Below, piece after piece: positions 13,589 to 40,133 of a stretch of DNA of 61,551 nt (position 1 is its first letter; the number at the start of each line of letters is the position of its first letter). This stretch comes from Armatimonadetes bacterium 13_1_40CM_64_14. Its GTDB lineage: Bacteria; Sysuimicrobiota; Sysuimicrobiia; Sysuimicrobiales; Kaftiobacteriaceae. Position numbers and translations under genes: made by a program. The notes below the pieces were generated by a model. That model had not been told where the DNA came from, ran no database searches, and saw only the letters and a program-made list of their open reading frames with translations. The stretch lies in NCBI GenBank assembly GCA_001917855.1, contig MNEU01000063.1, positions 1 through 61,551 of the forward strand, given 5' to 3'.

Positions 13589-13924
13589 TCAACGCGGGGG
13601 GCTGGCGGGGCGGGCCCCCAGGCGGCTGAGGACCAGGCGGTAGCCGTCGGCGCCATACTCGAGGAAGCGGCGGACCCGGCTGATCGTTGCACTGCTGGCG
13701 CGGACGCGCTGTTCAACCTCCTCGTAGGTGCGCCCGGTGAACAGCAACCGCGCGATCTCCAGCCGCTGGGCCAGGGCCTTCACCTCCCCGATGGTGCACA
13801 CGTCTTCGAGGAAGCGGTAGCACTCCTCAACGGTCTTCAGCGTGAGCAGAGCCCGGCACAGCTGGTCGACCTGCGCATCTTTGAGTTTCGGATTTACCGC
13901 GGGGCGACTGTGACTCGTGGGCAT
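13589..13924 (-). CDS. TrpR-like YerC/YecD family DNA-binding protein (candidate histidine-operon regulator)
   Basis: 111 aa with the pattern LLTLKTVEECYRFLEDVCTIGEVKALAQRLEIARLL..G.TY.E.....AS.ATISRV, typical of YerC/YecD. Sits directly upstream of hisZ on the same strand. Confidence 0.75.
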   Translation of the reverse strand: MPTSHSRPAVNPKLKDAQVDQLCRALLTLKTVEECYRFLEDVCTIGEVKALAQRLEIARLLFTGRTYEEVEQRVRASSATISRVRRFLEYGADGYRLVLSRLGARPASPPR

Positions 13925-14113: not shown

Positions 14114-14127
14114 CGTACGAAAGTTCG
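14114..14127 (+). promoter_or_regulatory. putative LexA operator (SOS box) CGTACGAAAGTTCG
   Basis: One mismatch from the Gram-positive Cheo-box core CGAAC-N4-GTTCG. Lies in the yerC/lexA intergenic region. Confidence 0.5.
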
Positions 14128-14161: not shown

Positions 14162-14191
14162 TTGATAGTCGTACATACGTTCGCCTATTAT
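14162..14191 (+). promoter_or_regulatory. lexA promoter: TTGATA-N18-TATTAT with SOS box CGTACATACGTTCG (14170-14183) in the spacer
   Basis: The -35/-10 hexamers and the box are read directly. The -10 lies 19 nt upstream of the lexA ATG. Confidence 0.6.
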
Positions 14192-14209: not shown

Positions 14210-14863
14210 ATGGCTGCTTCGCTTACTGATAGGCAGAGACAGGTTCTTGAGCACATCGCCGCATCCATCCGGCGCAATGGCATCGTCCCATCCGTCCGCG
14301 AGATCGGGCAGGCGTTAGGGATGCGCTCGCCGTCCACAGTCCACCAGCACCTCACCGCCTTGGAGCGCAAAGGGTACATCAAACGGGACGGCGACCGGAT
14401 GCGGGTGCTGGAGATTTTGGATCAGCGGATTCTTCTCGACGGCAACCTCGTGTCGCACCTGCCCCTCGTGGGGCGCGTGTCCGCCGGCGTGCCCATCCTG
14501 GCCGAGCAGAACATCGAGGAAATGATTCCCGTTCCCCGCACGATGGTTGGCTGGCAGGACGAGAACTGTTTCTTGCTGACGGTGCGCGGCGACAGCATGA
14601 TCGACGCCGGCATCCACGAGGGCGATATGGTAGTCGTCCGGTCACAGCCGAGTGCGGATCCAGGAGAGATTGTGGTGGCGCTGCTCGGGGAGGAGGCGAC
14701 CGTGAAGCGGTTGGCCATCCAGGACCAGCGCGTGTGCCTGATGCCCGCGAACCCGCGCTACAGCCCGATCCTTGACCACTTTGAGATTATCGGGAAGGTT
14801 GTGGGGCTCCTGCGCCGTTACGGGGGAAGCCGCATGCCGCGCCATGGCGCAGGACTCTCATGA
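14210..14863 (+). CDS. lexA: LexA repressor (SOS regulator, S24 self-cleaving peptidase)
   Basis: Winged HTH (LTDRQRQVLEHI..., SVREIG), Ala-Gly cleavage site (VSAGVP), catalytic GDSM Ser and VKRL Lys. Confidence 0.93.
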   Translation: MAASLTDRQRQVLEHIAASIRRNGIVPSVREIGQALGMRSPSTVHQHLTALERKGYIKRDGDRMRVLEILDQRILLDGNLVSHLPLVGRVSAGVPILAEQNIEEMIPVPRTMVGWQDENCFLLTVRGDSMIDAGIHEGDMVVVRSQPSADPGEIVVALLGEEATVKRLAIQDQRVCLMPANPRYSPILDHFEIIGKVVGLLRRYGGSRMPRHGAGLS

Positions 14864-15072
14864 GCGTCCGGGCGGTGGCGATCCGCGGGACGAAGTCGGC
14901 CCGGCTGCGTGTGCTGCCACGCACGCTATCCGCGCCGGCAGCAGAGACAACCTGGCGCCCTCGGCTCAGTTTGATGGCGCGGCTGCTGGATGACCACGAC
15001 CTCGTCAACGTGAAGCTGGTGTTGGTGACCCTGCTGCTCATTGTGGCGATGGCATTGGAGGTGCCCTGGTAG
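14860..15072 (+). CDS. small Arg-rich protein with a C-terminal transmembrane helix (70 aa), hypothetical
   Basis: ATGA overlap with the lexA stop and TAGTG overlap with the next start. Very high GC3 in this frame. C-terminal VKLVLVTLLLIVAMAL helix. Confidence 0.5.
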   Translation: MSVRAVAIRGTKSARLRVLPRTLSAPAAETTWRPRLSLMARLLDDHDLVNVKLVLVTLLLIVAMALEVPW

Positions 15073-15554
15073 TGGTTCACGCCGTGCAAGTCTACACGTG
15101 TGTGACCACGCGAGATGGACGCGCCGCGCTTGGCGTGGTGATCCGCGACGTGGATGGCCAAGTGCTGCGCGTCAGCGGCCGCGCCATCGGAGACGCATCC
15201 CTCGAGGTCGCTTCCTACCGCGCCGTCTTGCACGGTGTCTGGCGCGCTAAACGGTTGGGTGCGCAGCGCGTGCGGGTCTTCACCGAGAATCCCGAGATCG
15301 TCGCGCAGCTCGAGGGCCACGACGAGGTGCCGGCGGACTTGATCGGCCTGTATCTGCAGACGAAAGCCATGCTGAATGCGTATCGGTGGAGTCGTGTTGA
15401 GCTGATCGTCCGGGACCTCAATGCCGACGCCGCGCTCGCGGCGGCGGGATCCTTAGAGCAGGCGACGGCACCGACGGGTGCCGCAGACGAGGATGACCTG
15501 GACCTGCCCTTGTGGCGCTGGGCGGAGGACGCAGCCGCCGGCGCGAGCCGCTAG
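15072..15554 (+). CDS. RNase H-like (RVT_3 / RNase HI fold) domain protein, catalytic residues apparently degenerate
   Basis: Pattern ..GVVIRD..G......IG...........YRAVLHG...A..LG...V.V.TE...IV.QL.. resembles the RNase H-like domain family. Start is coupled to the upstream small ORF. Confidence 0.6.
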   Translation: MVHAVQVYTCVTTRDGRAALGVVIRDVDGQVLRVSGRAIGDASLEVASYRAVLHGVWRAKRLGAQRVRVFTENPEIVAQLEGHDEVPADLIGLYLQTKAMLNAYRWSRVELIVRDLNADAALAAAGSLEQATAPTGAADEDDLDLPLWRWAEDAAAGASR

Positions 15555-15673: not shown

Positions 15674-16195
15674 ATGGACACGGCCGCGATCCAACCGCTC
15701 CTGGATGAAGGCGAACGCCTGTTGGAGCGTGGCGACCTCGAAGCCGCCGAGCGAACGTTTCGCCGCGCCGTGCTCACCGCACCGGACTCCGCTGTTGCCC
15801 ACAGCAAACTCGGAGTCGCGCTGGCTCAGCAGGGCCGAGCCGATGAGGCGATTGCAGAATTCACCACAGCCGTCGCGCTCCAACCCACCTACGCGCCAGC
15901 GTACAGCAACCTCGGCAACGTCTACCGCGAAGAAGGCATGCTCGCCGAGGCGCTGGCGGCTTACGAACGGGCCTTAGCGATCGATCCCGAGTACTGGATC
16001 GCCCACAGAAACCTCGGCATTCTTTACAAGCAAATGGGGCGGCTCGTGGACGCGGTCGAACACTTCAAGAAGGCCACACGACTGTCCGTGCGGCCCCCGA
16101 CCGACACCGCCAAGCGGCGGGGCTGCTTAGCTGCGCCGGCAGTTCTCCTCGCAGGTGTGGTGCTAGCGGCCGCGCTTGCGCGCCACCTGCTGTGA
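15674..16195 (+). CDS. TPR-repeat protein with a C-terminal membrane anchor
   Basis: About four 34-residue TPR units (A..Y.NLGNVY...G...EA...YERAL..DP) and a hydrophobic tail LAAPAVLLAGVVLAAALA. GGAGG RBS. Confidence 0.75.
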   Translation: MDTAAIQPLLDEGERLLERGDLEAAERTFRRAVLTAPDSAVAHSKLGVALAQQGRADEAIAEFTTAVALQPTYAPAYSNLGNVYREEGMLAEALAAYERALAIDPEYWIAHRNLGILYKQMGRLVDAVEHFKKATRLSVRPPTDTAKRRGCLAAPAVLLAGVVLAAALARHLL

Positions 16196-16243
16196 GAGGC
16201 GATGGGGAGTCTCCGCCGCTTCTCGGCTCCGCTACAGTCAGGT

Positions 16244-16684
16244 CTACTTGGTACTGAGGCACGTCTTGCGATACCATTCCTCAGCGTATTTACGATCGTA
16301 TGCCTTATCTGGAGGCAATTGTACCCTGCCCGCCAACAGATCTCCCACGAACTTACACGACGATAGAAGAAGATCCCGAGCAAATTTTTGTAGATTTGCT
16401 ACTTCGGCGCGAATTGCGGGGTCCGCGCAGGTGACGGCTATCGTGTCAAATGGAATCTTCAGTACGCCGCTTGAAGAGCCCTCGTACTCTATTATCATGA
16501 TCTTGTTCCCGTTAGCATCAAGAGCGGTGCCAACCTGATGGACTTCCGTCCCTTCAGGCAGATGGTAATCCCCACAAATGGCTCCTGGGAGGACAGCGGC
16601 CGAGCCTGGAGTGTTGAGCATAACGCCAATGGCAACGCCGACTGCCGCGGTCACCTTAAGCACGCCCCACTTTCCTCCGCGCAT
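16244..16684 (-). CDS. hypothetical secreted protein (signal peptide, 4 Cys), in a low-GC islet
   Basis: ATG at 16684 preceded by GGAGAGGTG. N-terminal KWGVLKVTAAVGVAIGVML..GSAA signal-like segment. I recognise no family. Confidence 0.55.
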   Translation of the reverse strand: MRGGKWGVLKVTAAVGVAIGVMLNTPGSAAVLPGAICGDYHLPEGTEVHQVGTALDANGNKIMIIEYEGSSSGVLKIPFDTIAVTCADPAIRAEVANLQKFARDLLLSSCKFVGDLLAGRVQLPPDKAYDRKYAEEWYRKTCLSTK

Positions 16685-16957
16685 CGTCACCTCTCCCTGA
16701 TCCAATTTGGCCTAATTGCCTTCCACTCTTCTCTTGATGAACCAGAGATCGCTAGCCGCGCCCCACTGGTCCAGACAACCCCGACCGAATACGCCTGCAT
16801 CGGGTAGGCTCGGTGCACTAACCCATGCAGGTTGTAATTCGCCGCGTTAGGTCCAGCAACCAGGAGTGACGGTACGCCTTTGATGTGGGGAGGCCCTGAA
16901 TTCTTGAACGCAGGGAAACGGGAGCACATCCTGCCGGAAGCTTTCGTGCGGTTATTG

Positions 16958-17323
16958 TTAGCCTCTCATGAAGTTTCTGTAGGCGAGCAGGTCAAAGTAA
17001 ATGGTCAGCTTGGCCAGTCTTCCGTCCTTAATCTCCCAGACTTCGGCGACATCTTGCCGCATCTTTTGTCCCTTCGGATTCACATAGTCGTAGCCGACCA
17101 CTGCGCAAGCCCTCTCACCCTCTGCAATCATTTGCTTTACTCTTACTCCCTCCACTCCCTTGAGGAACGGAACGAACGACTGAATGACGGCCGTTTTCCC
17201 TGTTGCGTTTAAGGTCTGGGACGCGTCAGAAAAAACAGCGTCGGTGGAGTAGAGGTTTTGCCATTTGTCGTCTTTTCGATCCAAGCTATCATAGTAACTT
17301 TGGACGAGTTCCCTGGTTGACAC
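16958..17323 (-). CDS. SnoaL-like / NTF2-fold (ketosteroid isomerase-like) protein
   Basis: 121 aa with the pattern ELVQSYYDSL...D......L...DAVF...........G...I..F and EVWEIKDGRLAKL, typical of SnoaL_2 proteins. Confidence 0.7.
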   Translation of the reverse strand: MSTRELVQSYYDSLDRKDDKWQNLYSTDAVFSDASQTLNATGKTAVIQSFVPFLKGVEGVRVKQMIAEGERACAVVGYDYVNPKGQKMRQDVAEVWEIKDGRLAKLTIYFDLLAYRNFMRG

Positions 17324-17616
17324 CGGTCTTCACCTTGTGGATTTCTTTTGATCCCAGATTACATCGTCTGATGTCATTTTGTCAGACCTTGCTCGCGCTC
17401 GCCTCCAAGAGGAGCGACCTGACGGGTGCGTCAGGGTTTGGCGTCATCGTTCCGAACGGTTCCCAGGATGGCGACCGCCATGCGCTCAGGGTAAGGTAGT
17501 TCAGGGACAACTAACCTCCCCGGGCCCGAGCAAATGGGCCTCTGTCCGTTCGCGCGACTGCGTTTCAGACGGGAAGGGCGGTGTTGGAAGCAGGACAACT
17601 TTTGTGCGAAAGCTAG

Positions 17617-17643
17617 TTGACGCTCAAGGGTGCGCGGTATAAT
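17617..17643 (+). promoter_or_regulatory. candidate sigma-70-type promoter of trxA (TTGACG-N15-TATAAT; alternative -35 TAGTTG at N18)
   Basis: Hexamers read directly, 83 nt upstream of the trxA ATG. Spacer length is suboptimal. Confidence 0.35.
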
Positions 17644-17725
17644 GCGGTGGCGGCCTCAGGGAATAGGGCTGGTGGCGAATCCGTTCCAAGAAGTGGCGCA
17701 GGATCGTCCGTCAGGAGGTTAGGAT

Positions 17726-18064
17726 ATGGCAAAGCCAGTGCACGTGACAGAACAGGATTTCGAGACACAGGTCCTGAAAGCGCAAGAGCCTGTGCTGGTA
17801 GATTTCTGGGCGGAGTGGTGCGCGCCGTGCCGGATGATTGCCCCGATCGTCGAGGATCTGGCGCAAGAGTATGACGGTAAGGTGAAGGTCGCGAAGGTGG
17901 ACGTCGACGAGGCCAGCGGTATTGCCAACCGCTACGGGATCATGAGCATTCCCACCCTGGCGATCTTCAAGGGTGGCGAGATGGTGGAGCGCTTGGTGGG
18001 CTACTTGCCCAAGCCGGAGCTGAAGCGGCGGCTGGAGCGCACACTCGGGGCAACGGTTAGCTGA
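17726..18064 (+). CDS. trxA: thioredoxin
   Basis: 112 aa with VLVDFWAEWCAPCRM active site (CAPC variant of CGPC) and cis-Pro IPT. AGGAGG RBS. Confidence 0.93.
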   Translation: MAKPVHVTEQDFETQVLKAQEPVLVDFWAEWCAPCRMIAPIVEDLAQEYDGKVKVAKVDVDEASGIANRYGIMSIPTLAIFKGGEMVERLVGYLPKPELKRRLERTLGATVS

Positions 18065-19610: not shown

Positions 19611-20050
19611 GCCTGATTCGGTGGGATCCATTTGATGACCTCGCGTCTCTGCGCGAGTCGATGGACAAGCTGTTCGACGAGCTGTTCACACGTCGGCCGC
19701 GGGGCCAGGCGGAGTTGGCCTGGGCGCCCGCCGTCGAGGTGTTCGAGACCGAGAACGACGTTATGGTGAGAGCTGAGCTCCCGGGGATTGACCCGAAGAA
19801 CGTCGAGATCACCGTCACACAGGACACGCTGACGCTGAAGGGCGAGGCGAAGCTGGATCGAGAGGACAAGGCCCGGAACTACTACCGGCGCGAGCTGCGC
19901 TATGGCTCGTTCCTGCGTTCGATCCAACTGCCGAGCGACGTGAAGGGTGATCAGGCGACGGCGTCCTACAAGAACGGCATCTTGGAGATTCGGGTGCCCA
20001 AGAGCGAGCGGGCCAAGCCGAAGAGCGTCAAGGTCGAGGTTGCAGAGTAG
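19607..20050 (+). CDS. Hsp20/alpha-crystallin family small heat-shock protein
   Basis: ATGA overlap with the hspR stop. Alpha-crystallin domain ending in the GILEIRVPK motif. Confidence 0.9.
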   Translation: MSLIRWDPFDDLASLRESMDKLFDELFTRRPRGQAELAWAPAVEVFETENDVMVRAELPGIDPKNVEITVTQDTLTLKGEAKLDREDKARNYYRRELRYGSFLRSIQLPSDVKGDQATASYKNGILEIRVPKSERAKPKSVKVEVAE

Positions 20051-36060: not shown

Positions 36061-36192
36061 CGCCGGGTCATCCCGTTTCCCCAGGTTATCCCCAGCAAAT
36101 TTCGCCTAGTATCCCCCGAAATTGGCCCTTTACCCACAAGGTAATCAACAGCCCGAGTTGTGAATTTTAAGCAGTCATCCAGCCCGTACGCC

Positions 36193-36222
36193 TTGACAGG
36201 CGTACATTTGTTCGCGTACTAT
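36193..36222 (+). promoter_or_regulatory. dnaB promoter: TTGACA-N18-TACTAT with SOS-box-like CGTACATTTGTTCG (36201-36214) in the spacer
   Basis: Read directly. Same spacing and layout as the lexA promoter at 14162-14191. Confidence 0.55.
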
Positions 36223-36254
36223 GCAATCGCCAGCACCGAACGGAGGTTCGCTGA

Positions 36255-39200
36255 GTGTCGATTCCCACTTCCTCCATTGAACGGGTTCCCCCTCAGAACC
36301 TGGAAGCTGAGCAGGGGGTGCTCGGTTCGATGCTGCTGGACCGCGACGCCATCGCGCGTGTCGTGGAACTCGTCCGCTCCATCGACTTCTACCGGGATGC
36401 CCACCGCCGCATTTACGACACCATTGCAGAACTGTTTGAGCGCGGGGAGCCCGTGGACCTCATCACCGTCACCGATCGCCTGCGCGACAAAGGGCAGCTG
36501 GATGACGTCGGGGGGGCGACCTACGTGACCGCGTTGCTCAACACCGTCGCCACCGCTGCCAACGTGGAATACTACGCCCGCATCGTGCTTCAAAAGTCGA
36601 TGCTCCGCCAGCTCATTACGGCCGGGACCGAGATCGCCCACCTGGGGTTCGAAGGCGAGAATGACGTAGAACTGCTGGTCGATCGCGCGGAGAAGCTGGT
36701 CTACAGCATCGCCAACCGCCGCTTGATTCAGGAGTTTCTGCCGATTCGGGAGATCCTCAAAGAGAGTTTCGAACGCATCGACCGCCGCTACCAAGACAAA
36801 GGGACCGTCACCGGCGTGGCAACGGGGTTCACGGATATCGACCAGCTCACCAGTGGCTTGCAGCCTGCCGACCTGGTCATTGTTGCCGCGCGGCCGGCGA
36901 TGGGGAAGTGCCTGAAGTACGATGCGGAGATCGTGGACGCGCGCACAGGAGAAGTCTGCACGATCCAGGAGATCGTGAGCCGGCGGACAGCACAGTTGTG
37001 GACGCTCGATGCGCAGGGGCGGCTGCACACAACGACCCCGTCGCAATTCGTCGATGACGGGATCAAGCCGGTGTACCGGGTGCGGACCGCCTCCGGGCGC
37101 GAGGTGGAGACCACGCGATCGCATCCGTTCCTGACCCCGTCCGGGTGGAGACCGCTCGCCGAGGTGGCGGTGGGGGACCTGATCGCGGTGCCCGCGCGTC
37201 TGGCGGTCTTCGGCGACAACGACTTGCCGGCCTATGAGGTGAAATTGCTGGCCTATCTGTGCGCAGAGACGATGCCGACCTCCCCGGGGCTCGCGCACGA
37301 CTATGCCGACGCCGTTGCGGTCGGGGAAGCGATTCGCGCGGCGACCAAACCAGCCTCGCATCCTGCAGATAAATCAGCGTCGCTGCCGGCGGCTCCTACC
37401 TACCATCCGATCCGAGGTGCGGCGGTGCCGGAAGCCGTGGGCATGCTGCTGGCGCGCCATCGGGCGCTGGCCGGTCCCGCGCAGTCCCGGGCGATTCCTG
37501 GTCTCGTGTTCACGTTACCCCGCGCCAAGCTCGCACTCTTTCTCTCGCGGTTACTGGCATGCACGGGAGGCGTCGAGACCGAGCAGAGCGAGGAAAACGC
37601 CGCAGACATGCAGGTGGCCGTACGCTGCGCGGTGCCGTCGCCGCGAATGGCTCGACAGATACAACATCTGCTGCTGCGCTTTGGCGTCGCATCGACGGTC
37701 CAGGGAACCGCTCTTGCAGCCACGGGTGTGCACGCCCGCATGCTATTGCGCGAAGTCGGGGTCATGGGGTGGGAGCGGCTGCGGACCTGGGCGCGTCATG
37801 ATCAGACCCAGTTGCTGGAGACTCCGGATATTCTGTGGGATCCAGTTGCGACCATCGAGTATACGGGCGACGTCCAAGTGTACGACCTCACAGTGCCCCA
37901 GACCCACAACTTCATAGCCGGCGACGTGTGCGTCCACAACACGACGTTTGCGATGAATATCGCGCAGCATGCCGCGATTCACTATCAAGTCCCGTGCGCC
38001 ATCTTCAGCCTGGAGACGTCCAAAGAACAGCTCGTGCAGCGCTTCCTGTGCGCAGAGGCGGAGGTCGACGGCAGTAAGTTGCGCACGGGATTCCTGACCG
38101 ACGCCGACTGGCCTAAACTGGCCCGGGCCATGGGCCGGTTGTCGGAAGCGCCGGTGTTCATCGACGACTCCGCCACCATTTCGGTAATCGAGATGCGCGC
38201 CAAGGCTCGGAAACTGAAGGCGGAGCACGGCTTGGGGCTGATCGTCGTGGACTATCTCCAGATGATCCAATCCTACAAGCGCACGGAGAATCGCACCCAG
38301 GAAATTTCGGAAATCGCGCGCTCGCTGAAGTCGCTAGCCAAGGAACTCGACATCCCGCTGATCGCGATCTCGCAGCTGTCACGCGCGGTGGAGGTGACCG
38401 GCACGAGGCGGCCGATGTTGTCACATCTTCGTGAATGCGTGACTGCTGATACAGTCGTCTGGGATGCCGATACGGGACGGCGGTGGACGGTTGGAGAACT
38501 AGCCGCTAGGCGAAGCTGGCCGCGGCTGCTGTCGCTAGATTCCCGTGGCAGACTCATCCCTGTTAGGCCAGCGAGTGTTTTTGAGAAGGGCGAAAATGAG
38601 GTTTTCGAGGTGAGAACCAGCACGGGTAGGCGGCTGAAAGCCACGGCTAATCACCCTGTTCTGACCCCTGACGGCTGGAAGAAGATCCATGAACTACGCC
38701 CCGGATCCCTTCTTGCTGCGGCTCGTCGCCTGCCTGTGTTCAACCGGGTGGGGGCAACCATAACCGCTGGTCGCGCCAAGGTTCTTGGTTATCTCATTGG
38801 GGATGGCAGTTATAAGCGCCATAATAGCGTCTCATTTTGTAGTTCTGATCGCCTTACGTATGAAGATTGTGTTGCAATTGCTGAGGGTGAATTCGGCATC
38901 GTCTCCAGGCATCGACCAGTAAGAGGGATTCCTGTAGCAGCGTTCGTTGCAATCTATCCGTACGCGGGTAGCGTAATGCGTGGCCGACGTTTCGGGAATC
39001 CGCTTAAGTCGTGGCTCCGGGAGTTAGGAGTAGAGGGACAAATTTGTTATACGAAACGGTTCCCGCACCAAATCTTCGACCAAGTCGATGATTCGGGCGC
39101 GCGGGCCTTGCTGCGGGCGCTATTTTCGACCGATGGATGCCTTACACGTCGCAGGTACCGGAACGGGACCTTTCTTTGGTCACTTCATTATGACACTGTG

Positions 39201-39917
39201 AGCCATGGGCTCGCGGATGACGTGCGCGACCTGCTATTGAGATTTAAAATCGTCGCGCAGATGAGCTCAGGATACAAGAGCAAGGTTGCAAGAGTGCCTA
39301 TCTATCGGGTTTGCGTTGAGGACTCCCGCCATCTCGCCCGATTCTGTGAGCAAATCGGCATAGAGGGAAGAAAGCCGTTCCTTGTCGACGAGTGTGCCGC
39401 AGAGCTTGTAACTCGACGCTCCAAGTCCCAAGTTGATCGGTTGCCCCTCGCTGCGACTCGGGCACTGTGGGATCGGAAGGAGAGTCTGGGGCTATCATGG
39501 CGGGAGTTGGGTTTCAGACTTCAGACGGGGAAGACGCTGGACCGATCACGCGCTGCCATCTTGGCCGAACGCCTGAGGGCGAGTGACGTTCTGGAGCAGG
39601 CGACGAATGACATACTGTGGGATCGCGTAGTCGAAATCACACCAAGAGGTATCGAGCCAGTTTTCGATCTGGTCATGCCGGGCACGCATAACTTTATTGG
39701 GAACGGAATCGCCTGCCACAACAGCGGGGAGCTCGAGCAAGTCGCCGATCTTGTCCTATTTATTTACCGCGAAGACTACTACAACCCGGAGACCGAGAAG
39801 AAGAACATCGCCGAGCTCATCATCGCCAAGCACCGCAACGGCCCCATCGGGATGATAGAGTTGTTCTTCCACAAGGAGCACAGCCGCTTCGGGAACCTGG
39901 AAAAGCGGAGGGTCTAA
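36255..39917 (+). CDS. dnaB: replicative DNA helicase DnaB precursor containing two inteins (mature helicase ~447 aa)
   Basis: DnaB N domain (PPQNLEAEQGVLGSML). Walker A split as ARPAMGK|..|TTF. Motif RRPMLSHLRE|..|SGELEQVADLV split by the second insert. C-terminal IIAKHRNGP. Confidence 0.95.
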   Translation: MSIPTSSIERVPPQNLEAEQGVLGSMLLDRDAIARVVELVRSIDFYRDAHRRIYDTIAELFERGEPVDLITVTDRLRDKGQLDDVGGATYVTALLNTVATAANVEYYARIVLQKSMLRQLITAGTEIAHLGFEGENDVELLVDRAEKLVYSIANRRLIQEFLPIREILKESFERIDRRYQDKGTVTGVATGFTDIDQLTSGLQPADLVIVAARPAMGKCLKYDAEIVDARTGEVCTIQEIVSRRTAQLWTLDAQGRLHTTTPSQFVDDGIKPVYRVRTASGREVETTRSHPFLTPSGWRPLAEVAVGDLIAVPARLAVFGDNDLPAYEVKLLAYLCAETMPTSPGLAHDYADAVAVGEAIRAATKPASHPADKSASLPAAPTYHPIRGAAVPEAVGMLLARHRALAGPAQSRAIPGLVFTLPRAKLALFLSRLLACTGGVETEQSEENAADMQVAVRCAVPSPRMARQIQHLLLRFGVASTVQGTALAATGVHARMLLREVGVMGWERLRTWARHDQTQLLETPDILWDPVATIEYTGDVQVYDLTVPQTHNFIAGDVCVHNTTFAMNIAQHAAIHYQVPCAIFSLETSKEQLVQRFLCAEAEVDGSKLRTGFLTDADWPKLARAMGRLSEAPVFIDDSATISVIEMRAKARKLKAEHGLGLIVVDYLQMIQSYKRTENRTQEISEIARSLKSLAKELDIPLIAISQLSRAVEVTGTRRPMLSHLRECVTADTVVWDADTGRRWTVGELAARRSWPRLLSLDSRGRLIPVRPASVFEKGENEVFEVRTSTGRRLKATANHPVLTPDGWKKIHELRPGSLLAAARRLPVFNRVGATITAGRAKVLGYLIGDGSYKRHNSVSFCSSDRLTYEDCVAIAEGEFGIVSRHRPVRGIPVAAFVAIYPYAGSVMRGRRFGNPLKSWLRELGVEGQICYTKRFPHQIFDQVDDSGARALLRALFSTDGCLTRRRYRNGTFLWSLHYDTVSHGLADDVRDLLLRFKIVAQMSSGYKSKVARVPIYRVCVEDSRHLARFCEQIGIEGRKPFLVDECAAELVTRRSKSQVDRLPLAATRALWDRKESLGLSWRELGFRLQTGKTLDRSRAAILAERLRASDVLEQATNDILWDRVVEITPRGIEPVFDLVMPGTHNFIGNGIACHNSGELEQVADLVLFIYREDYYNPETEKKNIAELIIAKHRNGPIGMIELFFHKEHSRFGNLEKRRV
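36909..37940 (+). mobile_element. DnaB intein 1 (344 aa) inserted in the Walker A P-loop between GK and T; endonuclease region looks decayed
   Basis: Starts CLKYDAEIV. Block B TRSHPFLT. Ends YDLTVPQTHNFIAGDVCVHN followed by Thr. Central LAGLIDADG-like remnants LLAYLCAET and FLSRLLACTGG. Confidence 0.9.
38436..39722 (+). mobile_element. DnaB intein 2 (429 aa) inserted between LRE and SGELEQ; intact LAGLIDADG homing-endonuclease motifs; lower GC
   Basis: Starts CVTADTVVW. Block B TANHPVLT. LAGLIDADG motifs VLGYLIGDGS and LLRALFSTDGC. Ends FDLVMPGTHNFIGNGIACHN followed by Ser. Confidence 0.92.
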
Positions 39918-40133
39918 CGCACGCTTCCTCTTCAAGACCAGTCAGCGAGGAATGAAGCAAAAGATTATCGCGGCAAGGCCGTTGGAGCGAGGTGGCATAA
40001 TTCTCCCCTACCAGCCTGCGCGACCGTCGAAAGCTCCGGCTTAGATACCGCGTCGCAAATCCTCTGCGGAATGTCGATTTTTGCGTCCCCGCGTTCGACG
40101 TATTAGTAGATCTCGAGAGCACGAGGAGGCAGG

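Follow-up and report, generated by a model that had tools for sequence, protein, structure and literature searches.

The window, by which we mean the whole stretch of 61,551 nucleotides (61.5 kb) that was analyzed, carries on its plus strand at 36255-39917 a dnaB gene coding for a replicative helicase of 1220 aa, in which the Pfam families DnaB, DnaB_C, Intein_splicing (twice) and LAGLIDADG_3 are recognized. The protein contains two inteins, one inserted at the P-loop (GK|C) and the other carrying the LAGLIDADG domain. The dnaB gene of Mycobacterium tuberculosis also carries an intein. The GC content drops to 0.57 at 38000-40000 and at 16000-18000, compared with about 0.65 elsewhere in the window. 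The dip at 38000-40000 falls on the second intein of dnaB, the one with the LAGLIDADG domain, and the dip at 16000-18000 lies around small ORFs and genes for TPR and thioredoxin proteins.

Direct reading of the region upstream of dnaB gives the order TTGACA, gg, CGTACATTTGTTCG, cg, TACTAT. A promoter scan identifies TTGACA (36193-36198) as the -35 hexamer and TACTAT (36217-36222) as the -10 hexamer, both on the plus strand, and the 18-nt spacer between them is spanned by the sequence CGTACATTTGTTCG (36201-36214, plus strand), an exact match to CGWAC-N4-GTTCG which we refer to as operator O1. Transcription of dnaB would accordingly start near position 36229. The scan returned a single sigma-70-like site for each of the dnaB and lexA regions, with a score of 10/12 and a spacer of 18 nt (0.1 sites in shuffled sequences), and O1 overlaps the core elements of the only promoter predicted upstream of dnaB. 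An inverted repeat, GTACGCC-TTGACA-GGCGTAC (36186-36205), has the -35 hexamer at its centre and shares sequence with the left half of O1. It was flagged by the scan as terminator-like and was discarded, being kept only in the relative with 98% identity (L001). An Rfam search of the window gave no match.

Further upstream the same strand carries lexA (14210-14863), whose product is recognized by the Pfam families LexA_DNA_bind and Peptidase_S24. A full-length alignment to the E. coli LexA structures demonstrated that this protein keeps the cleavage site VSAG|VP, the catalytic serine in GDSM and the lysine in TVKRL. The lexA promoter (14162-14191, plus strand), again found by the promoter scan, is composed of TTGATA (14162-14167), gt, CGTACATACGTTCG (14170-14183), cc and TATTAT (14186-14191), and a distal box with the sequence CGTACGAAAGTTCG, also an exact match to the motif, is situated at 14114-14127 on the plus strand. 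Downstream of lexA and on the same strand follow an ORF of 70 aa from the ORF list (14860-15072), which has no family match, and an RNase H-like gene (15072-15554, Pfam RVT_3). The ORF overlaps lexA by 4 nt and the RVT_3 gene by 1 nt, and the three genes, which probably form one operon, are found in this order in every relative examined. The conserved order points to an SOS operon of which the gene for the RNase H-like protein is a member. Divergent from lexA there is a TrpR/YerC-like gene (13589-13924, minus strand).

LexA homologues are abundant at 69-95% identity. In seven relatives (L081-L085, L207 and L208) the lexA promoter consists of TTGAxx, 1-2 nt, CG[TA]ACATA[CTA]GTTCG, 1-3 nt and a -10 hexamer which reads TATAAT, TATTAT, TACTAT or TACAAT, and 30-56 nt upstream of this proximal box there is a second, distal one that deviates from the motif in no more than one position. 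Since the same operator occupies the lexA promoters of the window and of these seven relatives, we regard the motif as the site through which LexA regulates its own gene. No additional boxes came from further lexA loci of relatives, in which the gene neighbourhood is unchanged.

A first-pass annotation of this DNA had pointed out that the dnaB and lexA promoters share one layout, namely -35, 2 nt, a 14-nt box, 2 nt and -10, and that the box is one mismatch away from CGAAC-N4-GTTCG. The coordinates are exact and the two 30-mers are identical in 24 of 30 bases. Direct reading also confirms the single deviation of O1 from this core, a T for A at position 3. The boxes which it listed at 14114, 14170 and 36201 are all present, but it missed a second operator downstream of the dnaB promoter and an array of DnaA-box-like sequences upstream of it, both of which are described below. 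The exact motif CGWAC-N4-GTTCG occurs four times in the 61.5-kb window (14114, 14170, 36201 and 36237), compared with 0.37 expected occurrences, and this count was reached by none of 100 shuffles. All four sites fall at lexA or dnaB. When one mismatch is allowed, the number of sites is at the level of chance (9 compared with 4.5 expected). Because this count is not significant only the exact sites carry weight, and the one-mismatch sites at 19908, 22919, 31771 and 40084 were set aside, including the one at 40084, which is located upstream of a YCII gene and has its mismatch in the core. We also scored about 123,000 positions of the window with a position weight matrix built from the lexA operators of the relatives only, a small training set of five distinct sites. 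The lexA site of the window ranked first with 25.8 bits and O1 of dnaB second with 19.1 bits, followed by a site with 15.3 bits, so that O1 is the best match outside lexA.

The second operator of dnaB, O2, has the sequence CGAACGGAGGTTCG (36237-36250, plus strand). It is an exact match to the motif and at the same time a perfect Cheo-type dyad, CGAAC-N4-GTTCG. Given the predicted transcription start it would cover about +9 to +22 of the transcript. The Shine-Dalgarno sequence GGAGG (36242-36246) falls within its 4-nt centre and right arm, and only 4 nt separate the end of O2 from the GTG start codon of dnaB.

To find relatives of this locus we searched species-representative genomes with the N-terminal extein of DnaB. 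The search returned metagenome-assembled genomes at 98% and 84% identity and a group of eight at 69-74%, which includes Ca. Fervidifonticultor sextus and Ca. Fervidifonticultor secundus. All other matches were at or below 58%. The phylum of Ca. Fervidifonticultor is Ca. Sysuimicrobiota (previously CSP1-3), which is known from enrichment cultures only (PMC11604079), and the paper describing this phylum makes no mention of LexA or SOS (PMC11604079). The best 80 dnaB loci, picked by protein similarity and not by the motif, comprised 10 loci of this clade and 70 of other phyla. A box with at most one mismatch precedes the dnaB start by 45-54 nt in each of the ten clade loci and in none of the 70 loci from other phyla, where there was one weak match at -226. 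At every clade dnaB locus the box lies between a -35 of the TTGAC type and a -10 of the form TAnnnT, and in three more distant dnaB loci it abuts TATAAT.

The flanks around the clade dnaB promoters could not be aligned. In an alignment of 18 sequences with a mean column identity of 56%, the only invariant positions are T.GAC of the -35 hexamer, CG.AC.T..GTTC of the box, TA of the -10 hexamer and the G's of the Shine-Dalgarno sequence. A relaxed form of the motif was found in the 113 kb of the ten clade loci at the dnaB promoters only, apart from one intragenic site. All the clade sequence gathered, about 494 kb, shows the strict motif at the lexA and dnaB promoters and otherwise just at this same intragenic site. 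Some lineages have the canonical CGAAC form, either at lexA (L207) or at dnaB (L002 and L008-L010).

The size of DnaB varies within the clade, from 449 aa in the protein devoid of inteins over about 780-950 aa with one intein to 1027-1221 aa with two, and all of the genes carry the box. It had been proposed that helicase supply after DNA damage could be gated both by transcription and by intein splicing. A link between the inteins and the operator has to be rejected, as relatives with no, one or two inteins all keep the box. Transcription and splicing may both gate DnaB in this genome, not however as a co-evolved design.

We then scanned metagenomes with the pattern TTGA-N3-5-CGTACATNNGTTCG-N0-3-TANNNT, which fixes the promoter and the box and leaves the downstream gene free. 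At least 120 loci were found. Among the matches listed, the gene behind the layout codes for LexA in 24 cases, for DnaB in 17 cases and one distant case, for RadA in 13 and for UvrA in 11. A Zn-ribbon/KTSC protein follows in seven cases, a conserved non-coding leader in six and a YneA-like protein in five. ImuB/DnaE2 (three), RecA (two) and DinB, ParC and SRAP (one each) complete these matches, whose proportions are those of a sample. Since genes of the DNA damage response dominate although the pattern does not specify the gene, we take a box within the promoter spacer to be a signature of SOS promoters. The 17 dnaB loci of the metagenomes contain O1 by construction and are not independent evidence for it, but they are independent with regard to O2 and the DnaA boxes.

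The window itself contains no recA, uvrA/B, ruvAB or dinB gene. The two metagenome recA loci and the main radA group were considered as genes of the same phylum, but turned out to derive from Coriobacteriia and Ca. Dormibacterota, respectively. For the high-GC matches dinB (L133), imuB (L200) and imuB-dnaE2 (L140) we compared tetranucleotide profiles and performed BLAST searches for shared genes. The profiles did not discriminate (0.91 for an Armatimonadetes locus and 0.81 for the Coriobacteriia recA locus, compared with 0.79-0.93 for true clade loci), and the BLAST searches of these three matches revealed no overlap with clade loci. The SOS regulon of the clade is thus known at lexA and dnaB alone.

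Several of the metagenome loci deserve mention in their own right. In Ca. Dormibacterota (L098, L160, L187, L190, L196, L201 and L205) radA is preceded by a LexA box between -35 and -10, TTGACC..GCGTACATCTGTTCGGTAGGAT, which suggests that radA is a main SOS target in this phylum. Six loci (L103, L139, L153, L154, L164 and L166) share a LexA-type promoter, TTGACATCGTACATGCGTTCG[CA]ATAAAAT, followed by about 90 nt of conserved non-coding sequence, beyond which the sequences are unrelated and often run into contig ends or transposase-like ORFs. This leader may mark where a mobile element ends, or it may code for a small RNA induced in the SOS response. Directly behind the layout, seven loci with a GC content of 0.49-0.56 (L104, L107, L132, L141, L145, L156 and L173) code for the 152-159-aa protein with Zn-ribbon motifs and a KTSC domain, which is uncharacterised and a candidate SOS protein of another lineage. 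Finally, locus L169 (GC 0.71) displays a LexA-type promoter with two boxes, an ORF of 96 aa, repeats of the DnaA-box-like sequence GTCCACAG and then an intein-free dnaB, whose product is 50% identical to that of a clade member. It may represent a second lineage in which LexA, DnaA boxes and dnaB are linked.

The metagenome dnaB loci were not chosen for O2 and provide independent evidence on this operator. In 27 clade dnaB leaders we find O2 exactly in 19 and with one to three mismatches in four, and it is absent from L002 and L008-L010. The stretch from the -10 hexamer to O2 is not conserved across the clade, whereas the arms of O2 stay LexA half-sites.

Upstream of the dnaB promoter the window contains three co-oriented DnaA-box-like 9-mers between 36086 and 36150, TTATCCCCA (36086-36094), TTACCCACA (36130-36138) and TAATCAACA (36142-36150), all on the plus strand. 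In the corresponding 2.4 kb from ten clade genomes there are 13 such 9-mers with at most one mismatch to TTATCCACA, compared with 0.12 expected. All 13 are on the plus strand, i.e., in gene orientation, and the enrichment is more than 100-fold. DnaA-box-like 9-mers are also present in most of the metagenome clade loci, compared with 5 of 70 dnaB loci of other phyla. This distribution suggests that DnaA may also act on the dnaB promoter. We considered whether the array could be the origin of replication. The GC skew is positive on both sides of 36 kb without a switch, and reading of the sequence around the array revealed no AT-rich unwinding element. An oriC at the DnaA boxes of dnaB was rejected because of the missing skew switch. 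In the relatives gidB-parAB precedes lexA by about 10 kb, and the origin therefore falls outside the window. Because of the skew and of the position of gidB-parAB in the relatives, the array is probably a regulatory cluster of DnaA boxes in an origin-proximal region rather than oriC.

It had been suggested at the outset that an SOS-box-like operator is placed in the dnaB promoter so as to occlude RNA polymerase. The operator in the lexA promoter, its presence in all ten relatives, the layout found in the metagenomes and the intact LexA protein all speak for this proposal, and the reading of the dnaB box as a LexA-type operator positioned to block RNA polymerase is strongly supported by the comparative data. 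The best explanation appears to be that dnaB belongs to the LexA regulon across the clade of Ca. Fervidifonticultor relatives (Ca. Sysuimicrobiota/CSP1-3). We consider it likely that LexA binds to the dnaB promoter and that dnaB is derepressed upon DNA damage. A LexA dimer on O1 would keep RNA polymerase off the promoter, and a second dimer on O2 would add to the repression by cooperativity or as a roadblock. Upon DNA damage RecA filaments would induce the self-cleavage of LexA, O1 and O2 would be vacated and more DnaB would be synthesized, presumably in order to reload the helicase at collapsed forks. With an operator so close to the consensus inside the promoter of an essential gene, either the repression has to leak or transcripts have to come from elsewhere as well. 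As dnaB is essential, repression should be partial or a basal supply should be provided by read-through from the upstream DUF2232-rplI-lon-like genes.

One alternative accepts the binding of LexA and assigns to it another purpose. LexA and DnaA would chiefly cap the level of the helicase during normal growth, and derepression in the SOS response would be a side effect. The need of an essential gene for steady expression, the origin-proximal location of dnaB and the more than 100-fold enrichment of co-oriented DnaA-box-like sites just upstream of its promoter are compatible with such a growth ceiling, and dual control of one promoter by DnaA and LexA is known for E. coli uvrB (PMC6015884). On the other hand, cleavage of LexA would raise dnaB transcription anyway, and the participation of DnaA is deduced from its boxes. 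The anatomy expected is identical to that of damage-induced derepression, so nothing in our data separates the two; we nevertheless regard a ceiling on helicase levels as the main role of LexA here as unlikely.

For O2, it could be argued that the dyad acts in the mRNA and not in the DNA, as a hairpin with a 5-bp stem and a GGAG loop which modulates the access of the ribosome to the Shine-Dalgarno sequence. The dyad does flank the Shine-Dalgarno sequence exactly, and the pairing is predicted in the minimum-free-energy fold. Shuffled sequence, however, folds as well as the leader RNA (z = 0.07). Moreover the arms are always the LexA half-sites CGAAC/GTTCG and never arbitrary complementary pairs, and the variants CAAAC and CGCAC disrupt the pairing without compensating changes. 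On account of the half-site arms, the uncompensated variants and the folding at the level of shuffled sequence, O2 is better read as a DNA operator, and we consider the hairpin quite improbable.

It is also conceivable that the box shared by lexA and dnaB is the target not of LexA but of some other regulator, e.g., a helix-turn-helix protein linked to the cell cycle or to replication, which would control both genes without any damage response through LexA cleavage. Only two target loci are known in the clade, and the clade form CGTAC...GTTCG is asymmetric and one base off the canonical Cheo box, which would fit such a regulator. Yet the box is an exact or one-mismatch Cheo box with the canonical CGAAC in the lexA and dnaB promoters of some lineages, O2 is a perfect CGAAC-N4-GTTCG, and the box is found in the lexA promoter as autoregulation predicts. 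In other phyla the layout precedes recA, uvrA, radA, imuB and dinB, and the asymmetric GTAC/GTWC form is that of the published cyanobacterial LexA box. A regulator different from LexA is therefore in our view very unlikely. Lastly, the two promoters could resemble each other by coincidence, as strong sigma-70 promoters whose spacers happen to be alike. The chance-level count of one-mismatch sites (9 and 4.5 expected) would agree with this, but the idea is refuted by the conservation data and is hardly credible, considering the four exact sites where 0.37 are expected, the box in all ten relatives and in none of the 70 outgroup loci, the invariant spacer columns amid diverged flanks and the confinement of the motif in about 494 kb of clade DNA to the lexA and dnaB promoters and one intragenic site.

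Binding of LexA, as we propose it for O1 and O2, can be related to two described types of LexA box. The boxes published for B. subtilis (CGAAC-N4-GTTCG) and for cyanobacteria (RGTACNNNDGTWCB) both fit the motif (PMC3091678). With the Cheo box of the Gram-positive LexA/DinR, as present at lexA and recA of B. subtilis, our sites share the half-sites and the 14-bp dyad, and O2 is an exact match. The Cheo-box systems likewise have multiple boxes at lexA and operators overlapping the core promoter. They differ in the promoter-distal half, which reads GTAC in O1 and the lexA boxes of the clade and GAAC in the Cheo box. The replicative helicase of B. subtilis, named DnaC, is to our knowledge no member of the LexA regulon listed for that organism. 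With the cyanobacterial box (Mazon et al. 2004, quoted in PMC3091678) our sites have the asymmetric GTAC-N4-GTWC core in common, and CGTACATTTGTTCG fits RGTACNNNDGTWCB at all positions except the first base, which is C rather than R. The cyanobacterial box, however, belongs to a different phylum, and dnaB is absent from the text of the paper on the cyanobacterial regulon (PMC3091678). A promoter region combining LexA operators with DnaA boxes has its counterpart at E. coli uvrB (PMC6015884). The gene controlled there serves repair, the one considered here codes for the helicase, and the binding of DnaA is predicted from the sequence of its boxes.

The replicative helicase had been noted not to be a standard member of the SOS regulon. 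This is fair, but there is a precedent in M. tuberculosis, whose dnaB has an SOS-box motif and is damage-inducible, partly via RecA (Smollett et al. 2012, PMC3381160; Brzostek et al. 2021, PMC8151990). Literature text searches revealed no other documented case of a replicative helicase under LexA control. Both genes encode the replicative helicase and have a LexA-box motif in the promoter region. The site in M. tuberculosis is of the actinobacterial box type and corresponds to a weak or unconfirmed ChIP-seq peak with a signal below the threshold (PMC3381160; PMC8151990). Here, by contrast, a predicted near-consensus operator is placed exactly between -35 and -10 and a second box covers the ribosome-binding site. 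In addition the operator is conserved across a clade of another phylum. LexA control of a replicative helicase is thus rare and not new, and the present case is clearer than that of M. tuberculosis.

The LexA regulon differs in composition from phylum to phylum and hardly ever includes the replicative helicase. The dnaB operators described here do not reveal a new mechanism, but they provide a clean and conserved case, beside an array of DnaA boxes, in a candidate phylum with neither an isolate nor a described SOS system. If confirmed, they would define the LexA motif of Sysuimicrobiota as CGTAC-N4-GTTCG, intermediate between the Gram-positive and the cyanobacterial forms, and they would offer a simple, testable system of two sites within about 60 bp for studying how a stress repressor takes control of an essential gene of replication. 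They would also constitute the second and much clearer example, after M. tuberculosis, of a damage-inducible supply of the helicase. More tentatively, and with the odds rather against it, the LexA network of Ca. Sysuimicrobiota could be centred on replication and not on repair. The doubly operated dnaB would then be a core target whose promoter integrates DNA damage via LexA and the status of initiation via DnaA, and dnaB and the operon of lexA, the 70-aa ORF and the RNase H-like gene may be among very few targets of LexA. If this were true, the SOS response of these bacteria would be rewired such that it controls the capacity for fork restart directly.
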